A DNA stretch of 64,000 nt from Acidimicrobiaceae bacterium (GCA_009835735.1 VXWX01000112.1:1994-65993), one strand, 5' to 3'. Counted from the stretch's first letter, positions 17,509 through 45,866 are shown. The notes: generated by a model not told the origin, from the sequence alone. Numbers and translations are program-made.

Positions 17509-19005
17509 ATGTCCCGTCCGAGCACCGGTGACCTGATCGCCGGGGTGTCGGTGGCCCTAGTCGCCATCCCGCAGTCGCTGGCCTACGCCGAGTTGGCCGG
17601 GCTCCCGGCGCATTACGGCCTCTACGCGACGGCGCTGCCGTCGCTGCTGGCCGCGTTCTTCGTGTCGTCGAGATACCTGCAGACCGGACCGGTGGCCCTG
17701 ACCGCTCTGCTCACCCTCGGGGCGCTGTCCGGGGTGGCCGAGCCCGGCGGTGCCGGCTACATCCAGAGCGCGGCGCTGCTGGCCCTGCTGGTGGGCATCA
17801 TCCGGGTGCTGCTGGGCGTGGCCCGCATGGGCCGGGTCGCCTACGTGCTGTCGGAGCCGGTCGTCACCGGATTCACCGCCGGAGCCGCGGTCGTGATCAT
17901 CGCCTCGCAGTTGCCCAAGATCTTCGACGTCTACCCCGACGGGCAGGTTCTGGCCGTCGCGGTGCGCGCTCTGGGCCGGCCCGACGAATGGCGCTGGTCG
18001 GCCATCGCCTTCGCCGTGATAACGGTGGTCCTGATGATCGGGGGTCGCCACGTCCACCGCCTGTTCCCCGGTGTGCTGGTGGCGGTCATCGCCGGTGTGG
18101 TAGTGGCCGGCGCCAGCGGTTATGAGGGTTCGAAGGTGGGCGACCTCGACGGCGGGTTCATACCGCTGAGCCTGGACTTCCCGTGGTCGGAGGCGCCGGG
18201 CCTGCTGCTGCCGGCGGCGGTGATCGCCCTGGTCGGGTTCGCCGAGCCGGCATCGATCGCCCGCACCTACGCGGCGGCCGACCGCCTGCCGTGGAACGCC
18301 AACCGCGAGATGGTGAGCCAGGGGGTCGCCAACCTCGCCTCCGCGGTGTCGGGAGCCTTCCCGGTGGGCGGCTCCTTCTCCCGCAGCTCTCTCAACCGGA
18401 TGGCCGGCGCTACCAGCCCATGGTCCGGCGCGATCACCGGAGCCTTCGTGCTGGCCGTGCTGCCGCTCGCCTTCCTGCTGGAGGACCTGCCCACTTCGGT
18501 ACTCGGTGTGATCGTGATCGTCGTCGTGGTGCGGCTGGTCGACATCAAGGAGATAATGCGCTTGCCGTGGGGCTCCTTCCCCCAAGCGCTGGTGGGCGCG
18601 GGAACCACGTTCGCCACCATCGGCTTCGCGCCCCGGGTGGAGCGGGGCGTGCTGGTGGGGATCGGATTGGCCATCGCGGTGCACCTCTACCGCGAGATGC
18701 AGGTCATCACCCCCGCCGAGCGGAACCATGAGACCCTCACCGTGCGGCCCAAGGGCGTGATGTGGTTCGCCACCGTGCCCCAGGTGGAGCGCTCGGTCCG
18801 TGAGGAACTGGCCACCGAGCGCGACCTGACGTCGGTGGTGATCGACCTGTCCGGCGTGGGTCGGCTCGACTACTCCGGAGCGGTGGCGCTGCGACGCATC
18901 ATCGAGCGGATGTCCGTCGGCGGGGTGAGCGTCGTCGTGGCCGGCATCCCGCCCAGCGCATCAGGGGCGGTGCGCGCCGAGCTGGAGGGCTACGAGTCGG
19001 CGTAA
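17509..19005 (+). CDS. SulP-family anion transporter with C-terminal STAS domain
   Basis: Multi-TM N-terminus (IPQSLAYAELAGLP motif) and a STAS-like C-terminus (VVIDLSGVGRLDYSGAVAL). Confidence 0.85.
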   Translation: MSRPSTGDLIAGVSVALVAIPQSLAYAELAGLPAHYGLYATALPSLLAAFFVSSRYLQTGPVALTALLTLGALSGVAEPGGAGYIQSAALLALLVGIIRVLLGVARMGRVAYVLSEPVVTGFTAGAAVVIIASQLPKIFDVYPDGQVLAVAVRALGRPDEWRWSAIAFAVITVVLMIGGRHVHRLFPGVLVAVIAGVVVAGASGYEGSKVGDLDGGFIPLSLDFPWSEAPGLLLPAAVIALVGFAEPASIARTYAAADRLPWNANREMVSQGVANLASAVSGAFPVGGSFSRSSLNRMAGATSPWSGAITGAFVLAVLPLAFLLEDLPTSVLGVIVIVVVVRLVDIKEIMRLPWGSFPQALVGAGTTFATIGFAPRVERGVLVGIGLAIAVHLYREMQVITPAERNHETLTVRPKGVMWFATVPQVERSVREELATERDLTSVVIDLSGVGRLDYSGAVALRRIIERMSVGGVSVVVAGIPPSASGAVRAELEGYESA

Positions 19006-20035: not shown

Positions 20036-20431
20036 CTAGAAGGAGAAGCCGTCCAGGACCTTCTTGAGGTCCTCGGTGTCCTGCGAGCCGAGCACCACCC
20101 TGGAGTTCGTGGCTACGTAGACGATGTCGAGGTTGATGCCGGCGTCAGAAACCATCCGGGCTAGCTCGGCCAGCTCGCCCGGCCGGTCCTTGGCCTGGAC
20201 CACCACCACCTCGCGCTCGCGGGTGACGGTCGGTCCATGCGTGTTGGCCAGTGCCCGGTACACCGGCTCACTGTGGGGCACGAGGATGTGAAGCTCCGCT
20301 GTGTTGCCGTTCCCCATGCACGTCGCGGCCGCGATGTTCACGCCCGCGTCGCTGATCGCAGTTGCCACTTTGGCCAGCGCCCCCGGTTTGTTCTCCAACT
20401 CGATAACCAGGTCGCTGGCCAGAGTAGACAT
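20036..20431 (-). CDS. ACT-domain protein
   Basis: Two ACT-like repeats (ELENKPGALAKVATAISDAGVNI and VQAKDRPGELAELARMVSDAGINL). The ATG at 20431 is preceded by AAGGAGGA. Confidence 0.6.
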   Translation of the reverse strand: MSTLASDLVIELENKPGALAKVATAISDAGVNIAAATCMGNGNTAELHILVPHSEPVYRALANTHGPTVTREREVVVVQAKDRPGELAELARMVSDAGINLDIVYVATNSRVVLGSQDTEDLKKVLDGFSF

Positions 20432-20554
20432 GAGAGCGCGTCCTCCTTGGGTTGTGGGGCCCGGTGCGCGCGCCCGGGCGGATCGGCCGACTGTAGAACA
20501 CAACCGTGCTGCTGTGAAGCCCGAGTCTGCGGCCTTCGGAGCGGTTTGACAAAC

Positions 20555-21382
20555 ATGTACCGTTCGCGGGTGCTAGTCGACGCCCACACCCATGTCGTGG
20601 CGATCGATCAGGACGCGTTTCCCTTGTCTCCGGCCGCGCTGCCGGGCAACTGGTACACCGAGGCGCCGTGCACGGCCGAGCGCCTGCTGGCCGAGATGGA
20701 CGGCGCGGGCGTCGATCTGGCCGTGCTGGTCCAGCCGGTCGGTGCGTACTCCTTCGACAACCGCTACGCGGTGGCCGCGGCTACCGAGCACTCCGACCGG
20801 TTCACGGCCGCCTGCTGCGTCGATCCCTACGGCGGATCGCCCGAGGAGGAACTCCGGCGCTGGCTCGACCACGCAGGCGTCGGCGGCGTGCGGTTCTTTG
20901 CGCTGTCGCGGCAGCGGTCCTGGTTGAGCGACCCGAACACATTCGGACTGTGGGAGCAAGCCGCGGCGTCCGGTGCCCATGTGATAGTGACCGTCTTCGA
21001 GAGCCAGTTCGATGAACTCGCCGGAGTGCTCGGGCGTTTTCGGGATGTGGCGGTGTCGATGGACCACTGCGGGTTCTGCGACGTCGCCCGGCCCGAGCCG
21101 CTGGAGGAGCTGGCCCGGTTCGAGAACCTCCACCTCAAGGTGACCACCAACGTGATCGACGCCGCAGCCGCGGCTGAGGGCACGGCCCGACCCTTCGTGT
21201 TGCGGTTGGCCGGAGCTTTCGGTGCGGAGCGGCTGATGTGGGGCTCCGACTTCTGCCAGACCCACGACCGCCCATATCCGGAGCTGGTGCGGGACGGGAT
21301 CGAGGCCTTCGCGGCCCTTCCGGGCCGGCACCAGGACGCCTGTCTAGGGGGAACCGCGCTACGCCTGTGGCGTCCCGGCTAG
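20555..21382 (+). CDS. Amidohydrolase-2 (PF04909-like) family protein
   Basis: The MYRSRVLVDAHTHVV N-terminal metal-binding motif and the C-terminal WGSDF motif. The upstream part of the track ORF is antisense to the ACT gene. Confidence 0.7.
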   Translation: MYRSRVLVDAHTHVVAIDQDAFPLSPAALPGNWYTEAPCTAERLLAEMDGAGVDLAVLVQPVGAYSFDNRYAVAAATEHSDRFTAACCVDPYGGSPEEELRRWLDHAGVGGVRFFALSRQRSWLSDPNTFGLWEQAAASGAHVIVTVFESQFDELAGVLGRFRDVAVSMDHCGFCDVARPEPLEELARFENLHLKVTTNVIDAAAAAEGTARPFVLRLAGAFGAERLMWGSDFCQTHDRPYPELVRDGIEAFAALPGRHQDACLGGTALRLWRPG

Positions 21383-22408
21383 CGGGTCGATCTCGTTGAG
21401 GAGGGGCTCGCCGGCGACGTAGCGGGCGAGGTTGTCAGCGAAGACTCGGTGGGCCGACTCGAAGAAGCGGGTGGGCTCGGTGGAGCAGTGGGCCGAGATG
21501 TAGATGTTGGGGACGTCCCAGAGGGGCGAGTCCTCCGGCAGGGGCTCGACCGCGGTCACGTCGAGAGCGGCGGCCCGGAGCTTGCCTGAGCGGAGGGCGG
21601 CCACCAGAGCGGGCTCGTCGACCAGCGATCCCCGGCCCACGTTCACGAACATCGAGCCGTCCTGCATCGCCGCGAAGGCCGACGCGTCGAACAGCTCGTG
21701 GGTCTCGGGCGACTCCGGGACGGCCGCGACCACGATGTCACAGCGCCCCAGCATGTCGTGGAGCCCGTCGGGTCCTAGTACCTCGTCGGCAAGATCGCTT
21801 CCGGCTGCGCTGTGACGCACGACGATCACGTCCAGTTCGAAGGAGCGGGCGCGGCGGGCCACCGCCTGATTGATGGGTCCGAAGCCCACCAGCCCGATCG
21901 TGGAGCCCGCGAGGTTGTGGCCGAACACCGGGTGCCATCGCCTCTGTTGCTGGATTGTGTCCAGCCGGCGGGTCCGCTTGAACTCGCCCAGTATGCGGGC
22001 GAACACGAACTCGGCGATCGAGGTGGCGTTGGCCCCGGAGGCGTTGGTCAGGCGAATGCCCGCCTCGCGGAGCCCGGCCGAGGTGAGATGGGCGACACCG
22101 GCGGCCAGGGCCTGCACCCAGCGCAGTCGTGGCGCGACCGCGGCCACGTCGAAGGGCAGGTCGAGCGTGATGCAGCACTCGATGCGAGCGAAGGCGCGCC
22201 GCTGGGCCGCGGTGAGCGAAGGGGCCAGATGGCGCACGGCGTCGTAGGGCGGGACTCCCCGGCTGGAGCGGAGTTCCCTGGACTCCTCGTAGGGCTCCAC
22301 GACAATCTCGATGGGGGGATCGATGGCTGTCAGCTCGGCCAGGTGCCGGTCGAAGTCGAGGTTCCATTCGCTCGGATACAGGACTCCGACGACGAGCGGG
22401 TCGGTCAT
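21359..22408 (-). CDS. D-isomer-specific 2-hydroxyacid dehydrogenase family (NAD-binding)
   Basis: GSTIGLVGFGPINQAVARR (GxGxxG) and the later NVGRG motif. Its ATG shares a base with the stop of the upstream selenoprotein gene (TGATG). Confidence 0.8.
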   Translation of the reverse strand: MTDPLVVGVLYPSEWNLDFDRHLAELTAIDPPIEIVVEPYEESRELRSSRGVPPYDAVRHLAPSLTAAQRRAFARIECCITLDLPFDVAAVAPRLRWVQALAAGVAHLTSAGLREAGIRLTNASGANATSIAEFVFARILGEFKRTRRLDTIQQQRRWHPVFGHNLAGSTIGLVGFGPINQAVARRARSFELDVIVVRHSAAGSDLADEVLGPDGLHDMLGRCDIVVAAVPESPETHELFDASAFAAMQDGSMFVNVGRGSLVDEPALVAALRSGKLRAAALDVTAVEPLPEDSPLWDVPNIYISAHCSTEPTRFFESAHRVFADNLARYVAGEPLLNEIDPLAGTPQA

Positions 22409-22923
22409 CAGGATCCGGTCAGGAGACGCAGTGTCGGCTCCACCGCTTCCTCCGCCCGTTCGATGACTGCAGCCTCGTCGATGCCGCCCAGGGGATGCTC
22501 GACGGCGACGATCCGCAGGTCGGGCAGGTCCAGCGTCTCGGCTACGCCAGCGGCCAGAGACTCGAAACTGGTGGTCGCCACGAGGACCGTCGGAGTGCCC
22601 GCTGACTCAAGGTTGACGGAGTCGTGGACACTCCACGACGTGCAACTTCCTCAATCGGCTGAGCCGGTGAGAACCACCTCGGCCTCGGCCAGCCGGGCCA
22701 GCAGATCGTCGGGCGCGGGCAGGGCTGCGTTCTTGCGCTCGACGAGGCCCACCGTTGCGCCGGTACGGGCCGCGAGGCCCTCGGCCAGTCGTTGCAGCAG
22801 CAGGCCGGCGTTCGGTTTGGAGTTGTCGAGTATCCCGATGCGCTTGCCAGCCAGCGTCGGCCCGGTAACGGCGCGAGAAATGGCGGCCGGTCCTACCGCT
22901 CCCACCGGGGCATAGATCCTCAT
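22408..22923 (-). CDS. UGSC-motif selenoprotein (171 aa with in-frame UGA = Sec at 22653..22651)
   Basis: Track ORF 22651..22923 ends at a TGA, but the same frame stays open for 80 more codons to the TGA at 22410..22408. Sequence context is ...VVLTGSAD-U-GSCTSWSVHD... (UxxC redox motif). A hairpin starts 11 nt after the UGA. The terminal stop is coupled to the next gene's ATG. Confidence 0.8.
22621..22639 (-). promoter_or_regulatory. Candidate bacterial SECIS hairpin
   Basis: The minus-strand RNA GUCGUGGA-GUG-UCCACGAC forms a perfect 8-bp stem, or 7 bp with loop AGUGU containing GU. It begins exactly 11 nt 3' of the in-frame UGA. Confidence 0.65.
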
Positions 22924-22965
22924 CGGTTCCCTCCTTCGGAGATCCCTGTGGGTTCCGTCATGGGC

Positions 22966-24069
22966 TCAGACCTCCACCGGCACGGTGGCGCTCCTGGTCA
23001 TACCCCAACTCGGGATGACCGAGCTGTGCTTTCCCGGTCCTCCCACCACGATGATCTTGATGTTGCCCCGATGTTCGGTGACGGACATCGTCGCGTCGTC
23101 ATCCAGGGCCTCCTGCCACGGCGCCCACGCCCTGAGCGCGAACGCGGCCCGCAGGTCGCCGACCCGCATCTGAGCCCGCTCGTGGAGATAAGAGGCCACC
23201 CGGTCGCGCGTCCACCCGGCGCCGTCACATGCCGCGGCGTGCTCCGGGCACAGCATCACGAAGAACTCACCGGAGCTGACCGGCGCATTGTTGGACCCCA
23301 GTGAGGTCATGGCTGAAGCGGCCTTGTCGAGGATGGCGGCGGGATCCTTCGACTCCATGTCGTGAAAGTTGTGGGGCGCTTCGCCGCAGTGGACGGTGAC
23401 CGCGGAGGCCGCAGCGACTCCGACGCTGGCTGCGTATCCGCCCCACGGCGACTCGGCCAGGTTCTCGGCCACGCAGTAGGTGTACTTGGCCGGTCCGCCC
23501 TGGGTGGAGGCGTCGCCCGCACCGGGGATCGCCCCGGCGACGTGGAGCAGAATGAGCCTCAGCGCCCGTCCTGTGGCCGCGTTGGCCACGTTGCCGGGGC
23601 CGAAGGCGCCCAGCCCCGCGTTGTAGCCCGCGGTCTGGGCGATCTCGCCGTGCACGACGAGCAGCGGCGCCACCGGATGGGTGGTGGCGTTCACGCCTCG
23701 CAGGTTGATCTCGGGATGGGCCAGCGCCCGCACCGCCGCGACAAGCACAGGCAGGTGCTCGGGGCGGCAGCCGGCCAGCACCGCGTTGACAGCGATCACC
23801 CGGCGGGTAGCCACACCGGACCGGGGCGGCAGGACGGTGACGGGCTCGTCGGGATCCGCGTTGCAGTTGGCGAGCATCGCGTCTACCCGCTCGGGCGTGG
23901 GGGCCACCAGCGGCAGCCCGTCGCCCCAGCCCCGCTCGGCGTAGCACTCCCGGACCGCTTCGGGGTCGTCCGAGGCGATGTCGAGCATCTCCAGCGGGTC
24001 TGCCACGCCCCCCAGTCTGCTGCCTGCTGGACGCTCCTGCTCCAAGACGAGCGTGAACTGATATTTCAC
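22966..24069 (-). CDS. Conserved hypothetical protein (367 aa), first gene of the selenoprotein operon
   Basis: Long ORF with coding-type GC3. It contains ERGWGDGLPLVAPT and several Cys. I do not recognise the family. The GTG start at 24069 is uncertain. Confidence 0.6.
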   Translation of the reverse strand: MKYQFTLVLEQERPAGSRLGGVADPLEMLDIASDDPEAVRECYAERGWGDGLPLVAPTPERVDAMLANCNADPDEPVTVLPPRSGVATRRVIAVNAVLAGCRPEHLPVLVAAVRALAHPEINLRGVNATTHPVAPLLVVHGEIAQTAGYNAGLGAFGPGNVANAATGRALRLILLHVAGAIPGAGDASTQGGPAKYTYCVAENLAESPWGGYAASVGVAAASAVTVHCGEAPHNFHDMESKDPAAILDKAASAMTSLGSNNAPVSSGEFFVMLCPEHAAACDGAGWTRDRVASYLHERAQMRVGDLRAAFALRAWAPWQEALDDDATMSVTEHRGNIKIIVVGGPGKHSSVIPSWGMTRSATVPVEV

Positions 24070-24145
24070 TACATGAAAGGCAATGATAGAGATACAGGTG
24101 GCGCATCAGCGCGAAGGGTGATCGACGTTGCACTAGCCTGCGGAG

Positions 24146-25681
24146 ATGAGCGCTGAGCGTCGAAGGCGGCGGCCGCGCCAGGCCGCGGTCCCCGAGCCGA
24201 GCGGGCCTGTCCAGCCGCCGTGGCGGCTGCATGAACGTCGGTTCGAGCCGACGTCGATCGTGAGCGAGGACGAGCTCGAGGCCATCCACGCCGCCTCGCT
24301 TACGGTGCTGCGCGACACCGGCATGGAATTCCTGCATCCGACGGCCCGGACAATGTGGGCCGAGGCCGGCGCCAAGGTCGACGGTGATCGGGTGCGCTTC
24401 GACCCTGAGATGATCACCGAACTGGTGGCCACCGCCCCTGGTGAGTTCGTACTGCACGCTCCCGACCCGACGCGCCATTTGCCGATGGGTGGGCGCAATG
24501 TGGCCTTTGCCTCGGTGGCCAGCCCTCCGAACGCGGCCGACCGGGCCGGCGGCCGGCGCACCGGCAACCGGGAGGACTTCCGGCGGCTGGTCATGCTCGG
24601 GGAGGTGCTCAACTCCGTCGCCTTCCAGGGCGGCTATCCGGTCGAGCCGGTGGACGTGCACGCATCGGTGCGTCACCTAGTGGCCACCCGCGACCTGCTC
24701 ACTCTGACAGGCAAGGCCCTCCACGCCTACTCGCTGGGAGCGCAACGCAACCGCGACTGCTTGGAGATGGTGCGCATCGTGCGCGGCGTCACCGACGACG
24801 ACCTTGAGACGCAGCCGTCGATCTTCACCGTGGTCAACTGCAACTCGCCGCTGCGACTCGATACACCCATGCTGGAGGGGATCCTCCAGTACTCGTCTCG
24901 CAACCAGGTGGTGGCGGTTACCCCGTTCACGCTGGCCGGGGCGATGGCGCCGGTCACGGTGGCTGGCGCGGTGGTGCAGCAGAACGCTGAGGCCCTGGCC
25001 GGCATGGCCTTCTGCCAGTTGGTGAGGCCGGGTTCGCCGGTGATCTATGGAGGATTCACCTCCAATGTCGACATGCAGTCGGGCGCCCCCGCCTTCGGCA
25101 CCCCCGAGTACATGCAGGCGGTTCTGCTCGGGGGACAGCTCGCTCGCCGGTACGGCGTCCCCTACCGGTCCTCCAACGTCTGCGCGGCCAACGCGGTCGA
25201 CGCTCAAGCCGCCTACGAGAGCGTGTTCTCGCTGTGGGCCGTGGTGACGGGTGGTGCCCACATGGTGATGCACGGGGCGGGGTGGATGGAGGGCGGGCTG
25301 CAGGCCTGCTACGAGAAGATGGTCATCGACGCCGACATGATCGGCATGGTGGGGGAGTTCCTGCAGCCCCTCGCGACCGACGCCGACTCGCTCGCGGTCG
25401 AAGCCATCGACGAGGTCGGCCCGGGCGGGCACTTCTTCGGCACGGCCCACACGCTGGCCCGCTTCCGCGACGCGTTCTTCAAGCCGATGGTGTCGGACTG
25501 GCGCAACTACGAGTCCTGGGTCGAGGCCGGCTCGCCCACCGCTCTAGACCACGCCGAGCGCCTCGTGGGTGAGCTCCTGGGCGCCTACGAGCCGCCTCCG
25601 CTGGCCGACGACGTCCGAGCCGAACTGGACGACTTCACCGACCGGCGCATAGCCGAGGGCGGAGTCGACACCGACTTCTAG
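24146..25681 (+). CDS. MttB-superfamily (trimethylamine methyltransferase family) protein, non-pyrrolysine
   Basis: 511 aa with an Arg-rich N-terminus and a TIM-barrel MttB-like sequence (paralogue at 40401..41933). There is no in-frame TAG. Confidence 0.8.
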   Translation: MSAERRRRRPRQAAVPEPSGPVQPPWRLHERRFEPTSIVSEDELEAIHAASLTVLRDTGMEFLHPTARTMWAEAGAKVDGDRVRFDPEMITELVATAPGEFVLHAPDPTRHLPMGGRNVAFASVASPPNAADRAGGRRTGNREDFRRLVMLGEVLNSVAFQGGYPVEPVDVHASVRHLVATRDLLTLTGKALHAYSLGAQRNRDCLEMVRIVRGVTDDDLETQPSIFTVVNCNSPLRLDTPMLEGILQYSSRNQVVAVTPFTLAGAMAPVTVAGAVVQQNAEALAGMAFCQLVRPGSPVIYGGFTSNVDMQSGAPAFGTPEYMQAVLLGGQLARRYGVPYRSSNVCAANAVDAQAAYESVFSLWAVVTGGAHMVMHGAGWMEGGLQACYEKMVIDADMIGMVGEFLQPLATDADSLAVEAIDEVGPGGHFFGTAHTLARFRDAFFKPMVSDWRNYESWVEAGSPTALDHAERLVGELLGAYEPPPLADDVRAELDDFTDRRIAEGGVDTDF

Positions 25682-40400: not shown

Positions 40401-41933
40401 TCAGCCGATCTCGTCGGGCATCCCGGCCTTGCGTCGGGCCACGTAGTCGCGCAGCTCGGCGTCCACCGCGTCGTCGATGGGGGGCGGCTCGTAGTCGGCC
40501 AGGAGCTGCTTCCAGCGGGCGTTGGCCCGCTGTCCGGCTGAGAGCGAGCCCTCCTCGGACCACTGCTCGTAGCTGGCCGCGTCGGAGATGTCCGACCGCC
40601 AGAAGGCGGTCTCGAAGTTGACCAGAGTGTGCTGGTTGCCCAGGAAGTGGTCGCCGTGGGCGTTGGTGCGGAACGCCTCCATGGCCTGGCCGTTGTCGCT
40701 GATGTCGACTCCCCGGGCCCAGACCTCCATGGCGCCCAACTGGTCGGCGTCGAGGATCAGCTTCTCGTAGCCCAGCGCCAGCCCTCCTTCCTGCCAGCCC
40801 GCGGCGTGCAGCACGAAGTTCACCCCCGCCTGCATCGTGGGCAGCAGGGTGTGGGCCGACTCGTAGGCGGCCTGCGCGTCGGGCAGCTTTGAGGACGTGA
40901 ATTGGCCGCCTGAACGGAACGGCACACCGACCCGGCGGGCCAGCGACGCCATCACGTGGATGGCTTGGCCGGCCTCGGGCGTGCCGAAGGTGGGCGCTCC
41001 GGTGGCCATCGACATCGAGGAGGCGAACGTGCCGAACACGACGGGCGCGCCGGGCCGCACCAGTTGCAGGTAGGCCATGCCCGAGAGGGCTTCGGCCAGA
41101 GCCTGGGCGGCCAGGCCGGCCACCGTCACCGGCGACATGGCCCCGGCCAGGATGAACGGGCTGACGATGCAGGCCTGGTTGGCCCGGGCGTAGGCGGTGG
41201 CCGCGCCCAGCATGGTGGCGTCCCAGCGCATCGGCGACGAGGCGTTGATCAGCGAGGTCATCACCGTGCGGTCGGCGAGGTCTCCGCCGAAGGCGATGCG
41301 GGCCATCTCGACGGAGTCGGCGGCCCGTTCGGCCGCGGTCACCGAGCCCATGAAGGGCTTGTCGCTGTAGCGCAGGTGGGCGTAAACCATGTCGAGGTGG
41401 CGCTTGTTGACCGGCACGTCCACCGGCTCGCACACCGTGCCCCCGCTGTGGTGCAGCTGGGGCAGGGCATAGGCGAGCTTCACCACGTTGCAGAAGTCCT
41501 CCAGCGTGGCGTAGCGGCGACCCCGGTCGAGATCCATGACGAACGGCGAGCCGTAGTTGGGGGCGAAGACGGTGGCGTCGCCCCCGACCATGACGCTGCG
41601 GGCCGGGTTGCGGGCGTGCTGGGTGTAGACGGCAGGGGCGTTGTCCTGCACGATCTGGCGGCACAGGCCGGGAGGGAACTTCACGAGCTCGCCGTCGATG
41701 GCGGCCCCGGCGGCCCGCCACAGCTCCAGCGCCTCCGGGAATTCCTGGAAGGCGATGCCGACCTCGGACAGGATCGTCTCGGCGTTGCGTTCGATCTGCT
41801 CCAGACCCTCGTCATCGACTATGTCCACCGGCGGCAGCCGACGGACCAGGTACGGGGCCGCTTCGGCCGTTGAGGCCCTCGCTGCCCGCCGACCGGCCCG
41901 GCCTCCGCCTCTGCGCCCTCGTGCCTCGCTCAT
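40401..41933 (-). CDS. MttB-superfamily methyltransferase, non-pyrrolysine (last gene of the corrinoid operon)
   Basis: 510 aa, paralogous to 24146..25681 (shared blocks such as AYESxxxL and GWxEGGL). No in-frame TAG. Confidence 0.8.
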   Translation of the reverse strand: MSEARGRRGGGRAGRRAARASTAEAAPYLVRRLPPVDIVDDEGLEQIERNAETILSEVGIAFQEFPEALELWRAAGAAIDGELVKFPPGLCRQIVQDNAPAVYTQHARNPARSVMVGGDATVFAPNYGSPFVMDLDRGRRYATLEDFCNVVKLAYALPQLHHSGGTVCEPVDVPVNKRHLDMVYAHLRYSDKPFMGSVTAAERAADSVEMARIAFGGDLADRTVMTSLINASSPMRWDATMLGAATAYARANQACIVSPFILAGAMSPVTVAGLAAQALAEALSGMAYLQLVRPGAPVVFGTFASSMSMATGAPTFGTPEAGQAIHVMASLARRVGVPFRSGGQFTSSKLPDAQAAYESAHTLLPTMQAGVNFVLHAAGWQEGGLALGYEKLILDADQLGAMEVWARGVDISDNGQAMEAFRTNAHGDHFLGNQHTLVNFETAFWRSDISDAASYEQWSEEGSLSAGQRANARWKQLLADYEPPPIDDAVDAELRDYVARRKAGMPDEIG

Positions 41934-41994
41934 GTTGGCTCGTTCATGGTCTAGTTGTCTCCGGATCGTGAATTCGGCGATTGTCGAGCGATGT

Positions 41995-43971
41995 TCAGGC
42001 CGCGGGGCGGGGTCTGCGGCGCCGGCGGGAACCCTGTTCGTGACCAGCAGCGGCCGCCTCGGGAAGATCGATCACCGCGGCAAGATGCGGGGTGGGATCG
42101 GTGTCGTGGGGGAAGGCCATCGCCGCGACGAATAGCTCCTGGAAGCGGGACTCGGTGGCCGTCTCGATCTTGATCACCGACCGCACCACCCCCTCGATCT
42201 CCAGGCGCTGCTCACCCGAGAGCAGCATGCGGACGGCGCCCACTCCCGAAGCGTTGCCGGCGGCCCGCACACCGCCTGCGGGTGTGTCGGGGACGAGGCC
42301 CAGCACCATCGCCCGAACCGGGTCTATGTGGGCTCCGAAGGCTCCGGCCAGCCGGATGTCGGGCACCTCGACGATCCCCGCGTGCTCGCGCAGCAAGTCG
42401 ATGCCGGCCCGCAGAGCGGCTTTGGCCAGCTGGACGGCACGGACGTCGTTCTGGGTGATCGACAGCAGGATCGGCTCGGTCTGAAGCACATAACTGAAGG
42501 TGCGGCCGTCGGCCACGATGCGGGGCGACCGGTGCACCTCCGACGAGATCACGCCGTGGCGATCGGTGATTCCGGACAGGAACATCTCCGCGATCACCTC
42601 GATGATGCCCGAGCCGCACAAGCCCGAGACCTGGAGCCCGGCGCGGTCCAACTCCTCGGCAAACCCGGGCTCGTCGGACCAGAGCTCGCAGCCGATGACC
42701 TTCAATCGGGGCTCCCAGGTCTCCCCGTCGATCCGGATCCGCTCCACCGCGCCGGGAGTGGCCCTCTGCCCGCAGCTGATCTGTGCTCCCTCGAACGCCG
42801 GACCGGTCGGGCTGGATGCGGCCAGGACCCGGTGCCCGTCGCCCAGCACGATCTCGGCGTTGGTGCCCACGTCCACCACCAGCATCGGTTCCGTCGTCCG
42901 GTGAGGTCCCTCGGCCAGGGTGGCCGCGGCCGCGTCGGCCCCGACATGCCCGGCGATGCACGGACCGATGTACAGAGCGGCGTTCGGTAGCCCGATCCCG
43001 ATGTCGGTGGCGCGACCCCGCACGGCCGCGGCGGTGGTGAGCGTGAACGGCGCCGCGCCCAGCGGTGTGGGGTCCAGGCCCAGCACCAGGTGGTGCATGA
43101 TCGGGTTCCCCACCACCACAAGGTCGTGCACCCTGCTGTGGTCGGCGCCGGCCAGCCCGCACAACTCGCCCACCAGTTCGTCGATGGCGGTTCGCACCGC
43201 GGCGGTGAGCTCGGTCTCGCCGCCGGGGTTCATCATCACGTAGGAGACCCGGCTCATGAGGTCCTCGCCGAAGCGGATCTGCGGGTTCATCCGGCCCGAG
43301 GCCGCGACCACCTCGCCCGACGACAGCTCGAGCAGGTACCCGGCGATGGTCGTCGATCCCACATCGACGGCCACCCCCCAGGCCTCGTCGGAGTAGCCGG
43401 GCCGCACGTCGAGAACGGTGTGGCGGTTGTGCACCACCACCGTGACCGACCGGTCTCCGGCCGCTATGGCCGGGGAGAGCCCGGCCAGGACCGGCACCGG
43501 GAACTCCACCTCGGTCAGGCCCCAGTCGGTGGCCAGGGCCTCGGCGACCAGGTCGACCTCCGCGGCCTCGAAACCGAGGACAACCTCGGGAAGCTCCACG
43601 TAGTGGAGGGTGACCACCGGGTGGATGACCACCTCGGCGAGGTCGATCGACTTGCGCACCACCGGCCGGTGGACCTGGCTCTCCGGCGGGACGTCGACGA
43701 CGGCGTTGGCCAGCACCACGGCCTGGCAGCCCAGACGGAAGCCCTCGGCGATCGGGCGACGCCCCCGGTAGCGCAACTCGGTGGGGCCGGGATCCGAAAG
43801 GACGCCGACATCAGTGGCCGAGACCTGGCAGCGGCCGCACAAGCCCCGGCCGCCGCACACCGAGTCGAGGTCCACACCGCCGGCCCGGGCCGCGTCGAGG
43901 ACGGTGGCCCCGGCAGCCACCGAGGCGCGTATGCCCGAGGGGTTGAACACGACGCTGTGCGTGTCGTGCAT
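41995..43971 (-). CDS. Corrinoid reductive-activation protein (RACo/RamA-like): N-terminal 2Fe-2S ferredoxin plus ASKHA (DUF4445) ATPase domain
   Basis: CGGRGLCGRCQV ferredoxin motif followed by a long ASKHA-like domain (AVDVGSTT, VDVGTNAEIV). Confidence 0.75.
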   Translation of the reverse strand: MHDTHSVVFNPSGIRASVAAGATVLDAARAGGVDLDSVCGGRGLCGRCQVSATDVGVLSDPGPTELRYRGRRPIAEGFRLGCQAVVLANAVVDVPPESQVHRPVVRKSIDLAEVVIHPVVTLHYVELPEVVLGFEAAEVDLVAEALATDWGLTEVEFPVPVLAGLSPAIAAGDRSVTVVVHNRHTVLDVRPGYSDEAWGVAVDVGSTTIAGYLLELSSGEVVAASGRMNPQIRFGEDLMSRVSYVMMNPGGETELTAAVRTAIDELVGELCGLAGADHSRVHDLVVVGNPIMHHLVLGLDPTPLGAAPFTLTTAAAVRGRATDIGIGLPNAALYIGPCIAGHVGADAAAATLAEGPHRTTEPMLVVDVGTNAEIVLGDGHRVLAASSPTGPAFEGAQISCGQRATPGAVERIRIDGETWEPRLKVIGCELWSDEPGFAEELDRAGLQVSGLCGSGIIEVIAEMFLSGITDRHGVISSEVHRSPRIVADGRTFSYVLQTEPILLSITQNDVRAVQLAKAALRAGIDLLREHAGIVEVPDIRLAGAFGAHIDPVRAMVLGLVPDTPAGGVRAAGNASGVGAVRMLLSGEQRLEIEGVVRSVIKIETATESRFQELFVAAMAFPHDTDPTPHLAAVIDLPEAAAAGHEQGSRRRRRPRPAA

Positions 43972-43972
43972 G

Positions 43973-44863
43973 TCAGGCGCTTCGGCGACGCCCGCCCCGC
44001 CGTCTCAGGCCGACCGTGTCGGGGTCCCGGTGCTCGGCGATCCACGCAGCGCAGTCCCGGTCGTTCCCGGCCAGGACATCGGCGGCCATCACCGCGTTCT
44101 TCACCTCGGGGTGCATGGGGTTCATGATCGCGGAGGTGAGCCCGGTGCCTATGGCCATCGACAGGAACGTCCCGGTGATCATGTGGCGGGCCGGGAGGCC
44201 GAAGCTGACATTGCTGGCACCGCAGGTGGTGTTAACCCCCAACTCGGTGCGCAGCCGCCGGACCAGCTGGAACACCTGCCGTCCAGCGGTGCCCATGGCG
44301 CCGATCGGCATCACCAGCGGGTCAACCACCACATCGGAGGCCGGGATGCCGTGGTCGGCGGCCCGGTTGACGATCTTGCGAGCGACCTCGAAGCGCACGT
44401 CGGGATCCTCGCTGATGCCCGTCTCGTCGTTGGAGATGGCCACCACCGCGGCGCTGTGGCGGGCCACCAGAGGCAGCACCCGCTCCAGGACCTCCTCCTC
44501 CCCGGTGACGGAGTTGATGAGGGGCTTGCCCTCGTACACCGCAATTCCGGCCTCCAGGGCTTCGATGATCGAGGAATCGATGGAGAGGGGCACGTCGGTG
44601 ACGCTCTGAACGAGCTTGATGGCTTGGGCCAGAAGGGCGGGCTCGTCGGCGAGGGGGATCCCCGCATTGACGTCGAGCATGTGGGCTCCAGCCGCGGTCT
44701 GCGCCAGTGCATCGGCCTCGACCCGGCTGAAGTCCCCCTTGCGCATCTCCTCGGCCAGCAGCCGCCGGCCGGTGGGGTTGATGCGCTCGCCGATCATCAC
44801 GAACGGACGGTCGAACCCGATGACCACCTCTTTGGTGGCCGAGCTGACGACGGTGTCGGTCAC
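43973..44863 (-). CDS. Methyltetrahydrofolate:corrinoid methyltransferase (pterin-binding domain, MtgA/AcsE/MetH-like)
   Basis: FVMIGERINPTG, LDVNAG, INSVTGE and CGASNVSFGLP pterin-binding barrel motifs. The GTG at 44863 overlaps the upstream stop. The upstream part of the track ORF is not used. Confidence 0.8.
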   Translation of the reverse strand: MTDTVVSSATKEVVIGFDRPFVMIGERINPTGRRLLAEEMRKGDFSRVEADALAQTAAGAHMLDVNAGIPLADEPALLAQAIKLVQSVTDVPLSIDSSIIEALEAGIAVYEGKPLINSVTGEEEVLERVLPLVARHSAAVVAISNDETGISEDPDVRFEVARKIVNRAADHGIPASDVVVDPLVMPIGAMGTAGRQVFQLVRRLRTELGVNTTCGASNVSFGLPARHMITGTFLSMAIGTGLTSAIMNPMHPEVKNAVMAADVLAGNDRDCAAWIAEHRDPDTVGLRRRGGRRRSA

Positions 44864-45237
44864 TGGGGGTCTCCTTCGGAGTCGATGCTGCGATCGGGAT
44901 CCCAGCCGCCGGTCTTGACGAACTCGTCGAGCCGCTCCCGGGGGAACGCCTCCTCCAGGGAGGCTGCGGCCGCCATGGCGGCCTCCTCGGGGTCGGCGGC
45001 GCCCGAGGGGATCACGGACCGGCGCCACTCGCCGACGTACTGCGAGGCCTGGGTCTTGCCCGCCACCATGGCGGCCCGGTCGATGGCTCTCTGGAACCGG
45101 CGGGGGAGGATGCGCTGGACCCGGTCGGCGCCGGAGCCGCCGTTGACCTGGGCGGGTATGTCGCGCCAACTGATCAGCACCAGGCTCCCGTCGTCGTTGC
45201 GGCGCCTGCGCCCGCCTCGCCCCGCTGGAGGACTCAT
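44860..45237 (-). CDS. Small 'virulence factor'-family (PF13769-like) protein of unknown function
   Basis: The 125-aa ORF contains ISWRDIPAQV...RFQRAIDRAAM...EWRR, recalled as the signature of this family. ATGA overlap with the upstream gene and GTGA overlap with the downstream gene. Confidence 0.6.
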   Translation of the reverse strand: MSPPAGRGGRRRRNDDGSLVLISWRDIPAQVNGGSGADRVQRILPRRFQRAIDRAAMVAGKTQASQYVGEWRRSVIPSGAADPEEAAMAAAASLEEAFPRERLDEFVKTGGWDPDRSIDSEGDPQ

Positions 45238-45866
45238 GCCGCCTCTGAGGTGTCCGCGCCGGCCAGCTCCACGATCCGGCCCTCGAGTCCGCCGATGCCG
45301 GTGACGATCCTCTCGCAGCGAAGGCCGAGACGGGCGGCGGCCTGCTCCGCGGCGCGGGCCAGGCGGTCGTCGTCGGCCTGCGCGAGGTGGACGACACGGG
45401 TGTAGTTGCCGAAGTACGCCTCGAGGAGTTCCGGATGCTGGGAGATGCCCAGCCCCTCCATGATCAAGCGATTGAAATGCCGCACCAGGTAGTCGGTGAG
45501 GTAGAAGGTGCCCGGCTCGGCCTCCTGCAGGCCGGCGAAGGCGTCGGTGCCGGCGTAGAGCTCGTAGCAGTGGGCGCCGGGCAGCCGCTCGACCCCCTCC
45601 TCGGAGCACACCCGGTCGAGCAGCCCGCCCGTGCCGCAGTCCATGTAGCCCACGATGATCGTGGAGTAGGCGCCGCGCTCCTTGGCGACCCGGACCCGCC
45701 GGCGGACGGCGTCGGGGATCCGCTCGGGGCGGTTGTGCATGATCGCGGGCAGGCACTCCACCTCAAGGTGCTTGCTGCCGTTGAGGGCTGCTACCTCGCG
45801 CAGCTCGCGAACCAGCGCGCCACAGCCGATGACTAGAACCTTCGAAGGGTGCGGCGGGGCCGTCAT
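45234..45866 (-). CDS. DUF1638-domain protein
   Basis: 210 aa: VLVIGCGALVRE..., YMDCGTGG..., FYLTDYL. This pattern is recalled from DUF1638 proteins found next to corrinoid proteins. Confidence 0.6.
   Translation of the reverse strand: MTAPPHPSKVLVIGCGALVRELREVAALNGSKHLEVECLPAIMHNRPERIPDAVRRRVRVAKERGAYSTIIVGYMDCGTGGLLDRVCSEEGVERLPGAHCYELYAGTDAFAGLQEAEPGTFYLTDYLVRHFNRLIMEGLGISQHPELLEAYFGNYTRVVHLAQADDDRLARAAEQAAARLGLRCERIVTGIGGLEGRIVELAGADTSEAA

Follow-up and report, generated by a model that had tools for sequence, protein, structure and literature searches.

The UGSC family of selenoproteins has been known since 2007-2008 (PMC1976440, PMC2398784) and was still uncharacterised in a 2026 review (PMC13188914). 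The family is abundant in aquatic microbes: with 255 selenoprotein sequences it takes fifth place among the 51 families of the GOS data, and several non-marine samples contain it more often than any other family (PMC2398784). The B proteins of the Grd and Prd systems are also selenoproteins, with selenocysteine (Sec) at residue 350 of 436 in GrdB, 352 of 440 in GrdH and 152 of 242 in PrdB (PMC3091704). Here we analyzed a UGSC gene encoded in a 64,000-nt stretch of DNA from an Acidimicrobiaceae bacterium (GCA_009835735.1, VXWX01000112.1:1994-65993; hereafter, the window), together with a neighboring gene for an uncharacterised protein (hereafter, A346). An earlier note on the window had described these two genes and a dehydrogenase gene as a three-gene operon, functionally undescribed and possibly linked to methylamine catabolism. 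None of the publications that we found to mention the UGSC family speaks of an obligate partner gene, of Grd/Prd homology or of a function, and no functional study of such a module turned up in the literature searched, in agreement with the note. The family itself is known; neither the A346-UGSC pairing nor the Grd/Prd link seems to have been described. In 2008, UGSC was noted to be fused with a domain named "Unknown_1" (PMC2398784), which is probably A346.

In the window, the A346 gene (probably 22966-24006) precedes the UGSC gene (22408-22923; 171 aa) on the minus strand. The same gene order was found again in every related locus examined, so the arrangement is not due to chance. To profile the genomic context of A346, one genome per GTDB species was scanned; the family was present in at least 580 species, and the best 80 loci were retained. 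All 80 have a UGSC gene beside A346. In 77 of them it follows A346 immediately and is on the same strand; two have it at a distance of 1.3-2.7 kb, and in one it is adjacent but encoded on the opposite strand. These loci span Acidimicrobiia, Myxococcota/"Deltaproteobacteria", Dactylosporangium and others, and the extra UGSC paralogues detected in three of them (L044, L069 and L072) each have their own A346 paralogue. Cultured carriers include Hyphomonas neptunium and Dactylosporangium sp. CA-092794 (L063), the latter with a Cys form. The reverse search was anchored on UGSC and used the best 80 of 583 metagenome relatives, in a scan led by a divergent paralogue. A346 is adjacent in 70 of these loci, with both gene orders present, and the contig ends next to UGSC in the other 10 (thus 70/70 informative loci). 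What is conserved is the pair of A346 and UGSC, whose obligate linkage holds from either anchor and across phyla. The co-occurrence of the two families that the note had put forward as a check is therefore borne out, whereas its three-gene operon holds as a unit only for these two genes, as the dehydrogenase gene is directly downstream of UGSC in just 7 of the 80 genome loci.

In many organisms the two proteins also occur as natural fusions, in both orders. Four UGSC-A346 fusions of ~540 aa were identified (P0126, P0139, P0147 and P0268), one of which bears the NCBI annotation "UGSC family (seleno)protein", along with an A346-UGSC fusion that ends at the Sec codon (P0129) and two post-Sec UGSC fragments fused to A346 (P0128 and P0131). 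An AlphaFold2 (AF2) model of a natural UGSC/A346 fusion had a pLDDT of 90 and a pTM of 0.91, which predicts a single defined packing of the domains. In one locus (L085:7647-9583), a Sec-containing UGSC-A346 fusion was split by gene callers into proteins of 94 and 413 aa.

The UGSC gene contains an in-frame UGA (22651-22653, minus strand) at the position of Sec91, within the motif D-U-G-S-C-T-S-W. A single Pfam model, PF24696, covers residues 3-169 across this codon (E 1.4e-44; 152.6 bits, cut-off 25), and NF041046 is matched with 131.5 bits (cut-off 125). The codon alternates between TGA (n = 58), TGC (n = 14) and TGT (n = 2) in 74 full-length orthologues, with the protein conserved on both sides. 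A SECIS (selenocysteine insertion sequence)-type hairpin (22621-22639, minus strand; stem GUCGUGGA / UCCACGAC, loop GUG) begins 11 nt past the UGA. Among 121 unique Sec-type hairpin sequences drawn from 135 loci, all eight stem pairs are kept in 107 and seven in the remaining 14, and the loop is GUN in every one. One stem pair is G-C in 111 sequences, G-U in six and A-U in four, without a mismatch. In contrast, 19 of 25 Cys forms retain five or fewer of the eight pairs. The Ser codon is AGU in 118/118 Sec forms and AGC in 7/7 Cys forms with the TSWSVHD peptide, while the Val codon is GUC in all Sec forms and GUG in five of those seven Cys forms; these synonymous sites are frozen solely in the Sec forms. 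The minimum free energy of the region is also lower in Sec forms than in Cys forms (-17.7 vs -13.2 kcal/mol, p = 6e-5).

At the level of sequence comparison, these patterns show a genuine Sec codon, decoded via the conserved hairpin, and the UGSC gene of the note stands as a real selenoprotein gene. The other reading of the UGA is that of an ordinary stop, leaving two small unrelated ORFs (open reading frames) of 90 and 57 aa or a pseudogene. In its favor, selA, selB, selD and tRNA-Sec are not in the window, in which no tRNA was found, so Sec decoding rests on comparative evidence; in addition, a deletion truncates UGSC and the dehydrogenase in a close relative. That one model spans both halves, that 16 orthologues have Cys codons in place of the UGA and that the hairpin is conserved with compensatory changes make an ordinary stop extremely improbable, and the comparative data effectively refute it. 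In the relative concerned (L002:7063-7674; A346 89% identical), UGSC ends after residue 79, before the Sec position, and is joined to the C-terminal third of the dehydrogenase; the deletion apparently destroyed both proteins and left A346 intact. Many database UGSC entries stop at the Sec codon or begin just past it.

The mechanical ORF of A346 (22966-24069, minus strand) encodes 367 aa and contains the ERGWGDGLPLVAPT motif. Given that ~120 homologues, mostly 340-355 aa long, start where GTG 24006 aligns (MADPLEML...), the product probably has 346 aa. The ORF described in the note is thus present, and its product is probably shorter than the 367 aa given there. The note could assign this protein to no family, and the searches agree: the A346 of the window had no Pfam, NCBIfam or PDB-sequence match, and 65 diverse members (35-61% identity) showed no recurrent Pfam or NCBIfam family even at E<=1 and no PDB-sequence match. 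The family is nonetheless large: a profile search of 1.84 billion representative proteins yielded 5,855 clusters (50% identity) when the threshold was E<=1e-3, and 1,373 when it was E<=1e-30. A Foldseek search with the AF2 model of A346 (pLDDT 79, pTM 0.81) returned nothing at E<1e-3 from PDB or BFVD. The best PDB match suggested a class I fumarate hydratase fold and was not accepted (E 3e-3, TM 0.21).

Across 130 A346 sequences, D29, T109, R147 and E181 are invariant, and C80 (in the NAVxAGC motif; 127/130), C178 (128/130) and H256 (124/130) are nearly so. The close relatives share five invariant Cys and many His, which we considered as an Fe-S or His-metal site. This candidate was rejected: only C80 and C178 hold across the 130 sequences, whereas H110, H119, H155, H212 and H215 vary, and a metal or Fe-S site formed by the extra Cys and His is unlikely because these are not conserved family-wide. 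Four proteins of 713-741 aa (P0140, P0201, P0237 and P0242) consist of two A346 domains in tandem without a Pfam match, which hints that A346 may work as a dimer. A 549-aa member (P0076) was not accepted as a fusion, its extra N-terminus being a mis-called start.

We searched 26 UGSC proteins against family models, and the only families that recurred were the selenoprotein B models of the Grd/Prd systems (TIGR01917, TIGR01918, NF040794, NF040795 and TIGR04483). Matches were obtained to GrdB for 18 proteins (best E 3e-6), GrdF for 14, TIGR01918 for 9, GrdH for 9 and PrdB for 7, and they cluster around the Sec residue of UGSC. Residues 53-152 of the window UGSC align to positions 311-402 of the GrdB model, which by coordinate arithmetic places Sec91 at ~349. 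The score is 17.5 bits against a cut-off of 602, that is, the protein is not a member of the GrdB family. These matches show UGSC as a remote homologue of the Sec-bearing C-terminal region of Grd/Prd selenoprotein B, and it looks like a minimal version of that module. The statement in the note that nothing here resembles GrdA/B/H is thus wrong at the remote level. GrdA, GrdC/D and PrdC had no match among the 26 window proteins scanned.

In PDB, the UGSC part of the fusion model is matched best by lumazine synthase, the flavodoxin domain of flavorubredoxin and CheY (probability ~0.98, E ~4e-3, TMt 0.45-0.5). These weak matches suggest a flavodoxin-like alpha/beta fold, not a thioredoxin-like one. 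In three loci (approximately L040:2854-3700, L060:7100-7930 and L077:7058-7900), UGSC has a C-terminal extension of ~100 aa with a CxxC motif, which scores 24.4 bits against the NifU-like family PF01106, just below the cut-off of 27.

Because A346 accompanies UGSC in every informative genome checked, the two proteins probably form one redox enzyme. More specifically, we propose that they are the two subunits of one Sec/Cys-dependent oxidoreductase, most likely a reductase acting on a small, probably carboxylate-bearing catabolic intermediate, and we consider the chances of this proposal to be evenly balanced. On the model of the Prd/Grd mechanism (PMC3091704), the substrate would be bound by A346, in which Arg147 possibly holds the carboxylate, and the UGSC selenolate would attack the substrate or an A346-bound intermediate. 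The adduct would then be resolved to a selenenyl-sulfide by the UxxC Cys or by Cys80/Cys178 of A346, and the selenenyl-sulfide would be re-reduced by a thioredoxin-type thiol-disulfide system. A bolder version may be considered rather unlikely: the pair would be a new class of Se-dependent reductase, the aerobic counterpart of the Stickland Grd/Prd enzymes, with UGSC as a minimal selenoprotein B and A346 as a new-fold substrate subunit that provides Gly79-Cys80 as a pyruvoyl-yielding self-processing site or a resolving thiol. Such an enzyme would cleave C-alpha-N (or C-O, C-S) bonds of carboxylate-bearing catabolites, its paralogues would be substrate-specialised, and its substrate in the window could come from the neighboring quaternary-amine genes. 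Gly79-Cys80 is invariant, and the idea that A346 cleaves itself there to form a pyruvoyl group, in the manner of GrdE and PrdA, is speculation.

Several observations weigh against the two-subunit oxidoreductase. Neither A346 nor its 65 diverse relatives matched a Grd/Prd model at E<=1 (GrdE, PrdA, GrdI and the N-terminal part of GrdB). A UxxC motif would be compatible with metal binding as well, and some UGSC proteins have the NifU-like C-terminal domain. No biochemical data for A346 or the UGSC family were found in the literature searched, and the absence of the Sec-insertion genes from the window counts on the same side. As for the reductant, in one protein of 695 aa (P0130) the C-terminus of A346 continues into a thioredoxin-reductase-like Pyr_redox_2 domain that bears a CAVC motif, a fusion with no second case in the 150 representatives listed, and in L085 a FeThRed_B gene (PF02943, ferredoxin:thioredoxin-reductase catalytic subunit) is directly 3' of the pair. 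When ~170 loci were searched by tblastn with the thioredoxin-reductase domain, FeThRed_B and thioredoxin, just the source loci were found. A thioredoxin-system gene as a regular neighbor was therefore rejected (one fusion and one neighbor among ~170 loci), and the link to this reductant rests on two isolated cases.

We weighed two other roles for the pair. Instead of a catabolic enzyme, it could be an antioxidant or general thiol/selenol redox system that acts, for example, as a peroxidase or reduces disulfides in damaged proteins. This would fit the published view of UGSC as a thioredoxin-fold-like redox protein with UxxC (PMC2398784, PMC13188914), the peroxidase activity of GrdB reported by a title in the reference list of PMC3091704, and the general background that most bacterial selenoproteins are thiol oxidoreductases. 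It is distinctly unlikely given that the neighboring genes are overwhelmingly those of catabolic enzymes and transporters, not stress genes, and that A346 is strongly conserved, its invariant Asp, Thr, Arg and Glu suggesting a site specific for a small molecule. The two paralogous pairs in each of L044, L069, L072 and L081 fit substrate diversification, and the predicted fold of UGSC is flavodoxin-like. Alternatively, A346 could be a non-redox enzyme (an isomerase/racemase, a hydro-lyase or a Cys-nucleophile cyclic-amide hydrolase) with UGSC as an accessory for activation, metal/Fe-S delivery or protection of the active-site Cys. The weak top Foldseek matches of A346 were class I (Fe-S) fumarate hydratases (E 3e-3) and Toblerone-fold cyclic amide hydrolases, some UGSC proteins bear the NifU-like domain, and the pair has amidohydrolases and dehydrogenases on its flanks, as is the case in pathways for lactams or heterocycles. 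Those fold matches have a TM of ~0.2 and a probability of at most 0.35, however, and Sec, which is rare outside redox or nucleophilic catalysis, is a cost paid by 58 of the 74 orthologues, while UGSC shows consistent sequence kinship solely with the catalytic Sec regions of reductases. We accordingly regard a non-redox A346 as unlikely.

A sharper form of the reading in the note would make the pair a Grd/Prd-type reductase for a methylated amine or amino acid (such as betaine, sarcosine, N-methylproline or proline) supplied by the MttB/Rieske/DMGDH (dimethylglycine dehydrogenase) genes adjoining the pair, with reductive C-alpha-N cleavage in an aerobe. It draws on the remote homology of UGSC to GrdB, GrdF, GrdH and PrdB, on the divergent position of the operon from MttB beside betaine/dimethylglycine/choline genes, and on the retention of this arrangement in 10 related genomes. 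To see how far that association extends, we considered 167 loci (the 80 genome loci and 87 further loci). MttB, Rieske and DMGDH-type genes are near the pair in just 10 (L001-L009 and L023), all with A346 identities of 80-97%, and in none of the 70 other genome loci or the 87 further loci. Even in close relatives the adjacency is loose, with 1-2.8 kb of inserted genes in L007-L009 and no dehydrogenase in L003 and L008. A choline-dehydrogenase-like GMC orthologue (66-70% identical) is near the pair in five more distant marine loci (L031, L042, L050, L061 and L119), a weak residual hint. The MttB/betaine island beside the pair is a lineage-specific juxtaposition, and nothing shows that MttB belongs to the module; the link to methylamine catabolism and the co-occurrence with MttB/DMGDH envisaged in the note do not generalize.

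Distant members of the family are found in unrelated catabolic clusters. In L087 (3217-9375), UGSC and A346 are between the genes for the large and small subunits of a CoxMLS-type molybdenum hydroxylase, with PrpF-family, cupin, OsmC and ICL/PEP-mutase genes nearby, a gene set which we take to resemble the nicotinate fermentation pathway of Eubacterium barkeri. B12 mutase, radical SAM and B12-binding genes are upstream of the pair in L085, SoxBDA-like oxidase and ABC transporter genes adjoin it in L086, and an FAD aromatic hydroxylase gene in L083. Because the module sits in so many different catabolic clusters, the substrate would differ between lineages. With these contexts, and with no relative of GrdA, GrdC/D, GrdE or PrdA among the 26 window proteins scanned, a reductase dedicated to methylated amines is quite improbable. 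In one close relative (L009:3299-5920), an 873-aa protein with a poly-Thr linker and many RCC1-like repeats (TCWG...NxxGQ) is encoded between MttB and A346.

The third gene of the operon (21359-22408, minus strand) encodes an NAD-dependent D-isomer-specific 2-hydroxyacid dehydrogenase, as the note had it, with matches to PF02826 (E 1.3e-49; 168.4 bits, cut-off 25.1) and PF00389 (28.1 bits, cut-off 24.6). Its best NCBIfam match is 191 bits against a cut-off of 400, and no equivalog cut-off was reached. Across the 80 genome loci, a 2-hydroxyacid dehydrogenase gene is within 6 kb of UGSC in 18. The gene directly 3' of UGSC is otherwise an SDR (n = 15), a 409-aa Amidohydro_2 protein (n = 7) or, by motif only, a Zn-dependent alcohol dehydrogenase-like ORF (n = 2), the remainder being various or none called. 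Upstream neighbors include genes for an Amidohydro_3 protein (n = 8), MttB (n = 7) and enoyl-CoA hydratase (n = 6). The dehydrogenase is a variable third gene of the module. A 270-aa Amidohydro_2 protein co-occurs with the pair in 20/80 genome loci in shuffled positions, and in distant lineages 9 of 12 dehydrogenase-bearing loci also have it, again with positions shuffled. As the two genes travel together, a four-gene functional set is suggested for the subfamily of the window, probably A346, UGSC, the D-2-hydroxyacid dehydrogenase and the convergent Amidohydro_2 protein.

This Amidohydro_2 gene (20555-21382, plus strand; PF04909, E 5.5e-30) encodes a predicted TIM-barrel metal hydrolase or lactonase type. 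The mechanical ORF is longer (20237-21382, plus strand, 381 aa); the domain match begins at residue 114 and homologues have ~270 aa, and the true start is probably M107 (ATG 20555). The gene is convergent with the dehydrogenase gene, and their 3' ends overlap by 24 nt.

Inspection of the window confirmed the order of the 367-aa ORF, UGSC and dehydrogenase genes on the minus strand, divergent from MttB. The spacing between A346 and UGSC is 42 nt on recount, not 43 nt, with a strong Shine-Dalgarno sequence (AGGAGGG) 6 nt 5' of the UGSC ATG. The UGSC stop and the dehydrogenase ATG share 1 nt (TGATGA), as the note had reported, and the dehydrogenase start is predicted to be translationally coupled to the UGSC stop. 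The A346/MttB spacer measures 76 nt from the ORF start, the figure given in the note, or 139 nt from the probable start (24007-24145), and is relatively AT-rich (54-57% GC, 57% for the longer interval, vs 69% for the window). The promoters of both genes presumably lie within this spacer; a promoter scan of it gave no sigma-70 consensus site. Rfam returned no SECIS and no riboswitch match in 21000-24400, and the two terminator-like sites found are both within genes.

The divergent gene (24146-25681, plus strand; PF06253, 626 bits) encodes a methyltransferase of the MttB family. Its 511-aa ORF is uninterrupted and so lacks a pyrrolysine codon, and it scores 299 against the TIGR02369 cut-off of 525, whereas a trimethylamine-specific protein would have an in-frame UAG and exceed that cut-off; it is a predicted non-pyrrolysine member of the MttB superfamily. 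The genes 3' of it encode a Rieske oxygenase, a DAO-GCV_T protein of the dimethylglycine-dehydrogenase type and a GMC oxidoreductase, which by domain matches supports the adjoining betaine/dimethylglycine/choline island of the note. Beyond these, at 40401-45397 (minus strand), are a second MttB-family gene (PF06253, 724 bits), a RACo corrinoid activase gene and a pterin-binding methyltransferase gene. If a corrinoid protein is encoded as well, these three could form a corrinoid-dependent route for demethylation to tetrahydrofolate, in a genome that appears to be aerobic. A SulP-family anion permease with a STAS domain is encoded at 17509-19005 (plus strand), 2.4 kb from the operon. Some SulP-family members carry sulfate-like oxyanions, and a role of this permease in selenium uptake would be pure speculation. 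Gene for gene, the window proteins are 95-97% identical to those of L001 (VYCM01000146.1), a contig of the Acidimicrobiaceae metagenome-assembled genome SB0675_bin_16, and further close relatives carry the label Candidatus Aldehydirespirator.

The window offers one unremarkable example of a very widespread module, and its methylamine setting is not informative. The pairing, the fusions and the Grd/Prd kinship turn a small redox protein into a concrete, testable two-subunit enzyme, and the A346 gene is a reliable annotation marker for a missed adjoining selenoprotein gene. If the pair is a Grd/Prd-like reductase in aerobes, selenium-dependent reductive bond cleavage would extend beyond strict anaerobes, which would help explain why aerobic aquatic bacteria retain Sec machinery.

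Compared with described systems, the window UGSC is a full member of the UGSC family of Zhang and Gladyshev (PF24696/NF041046), with the motif, the Sec/Cys alternation and the SECIS element. A thioredoxin-like fold was proposed for the family (PMC2398784), whereas the best matches here are flavodoxin-like instead of thioredoxin-fold oxidoreductases. The dehydrogenase has NAD-binding and catalytic domains like those of GhrA/B, PGDH and the Haloferax D-2-hydroxyacid dehydrogenase, but it is below every equivalog cut-off, and an SDR or other enzyme substitutes for it elsewhere. The Grd/Prd systems (GrdB/E, GrdF/G, GrdH/I and PrdB/PrdA) belong to Stickland-fermenting anaerobes, whereas the hosts of A346-UGSC are aerobe-type Acidimicrobiia, Myxococcota and actinomycetes, in which the pair is in oxidative catabolic clusters. 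Unlike GrdB, UGSC does not have the N-terminal part of ~260 residues, and A346, unlike UGSC, is unrelated to its Grd/Prd counterparts (GrdE, PrdA and GrdI) at HMMER sensitivity. A thioredoxin-type reductant like that of Grd/Prd is plausible for A346-UGSC (P0130 and L085). In both protein B and UGSC, the Sec is in a UxxC motif ~80-90 residues from the C-terminus (residue 91 of 171 in UGSC), and in both systems the Sec subunit is accompanied by a larger, adjacently encoded subunit, which in Grd/Prd is the one that binds the substrate.

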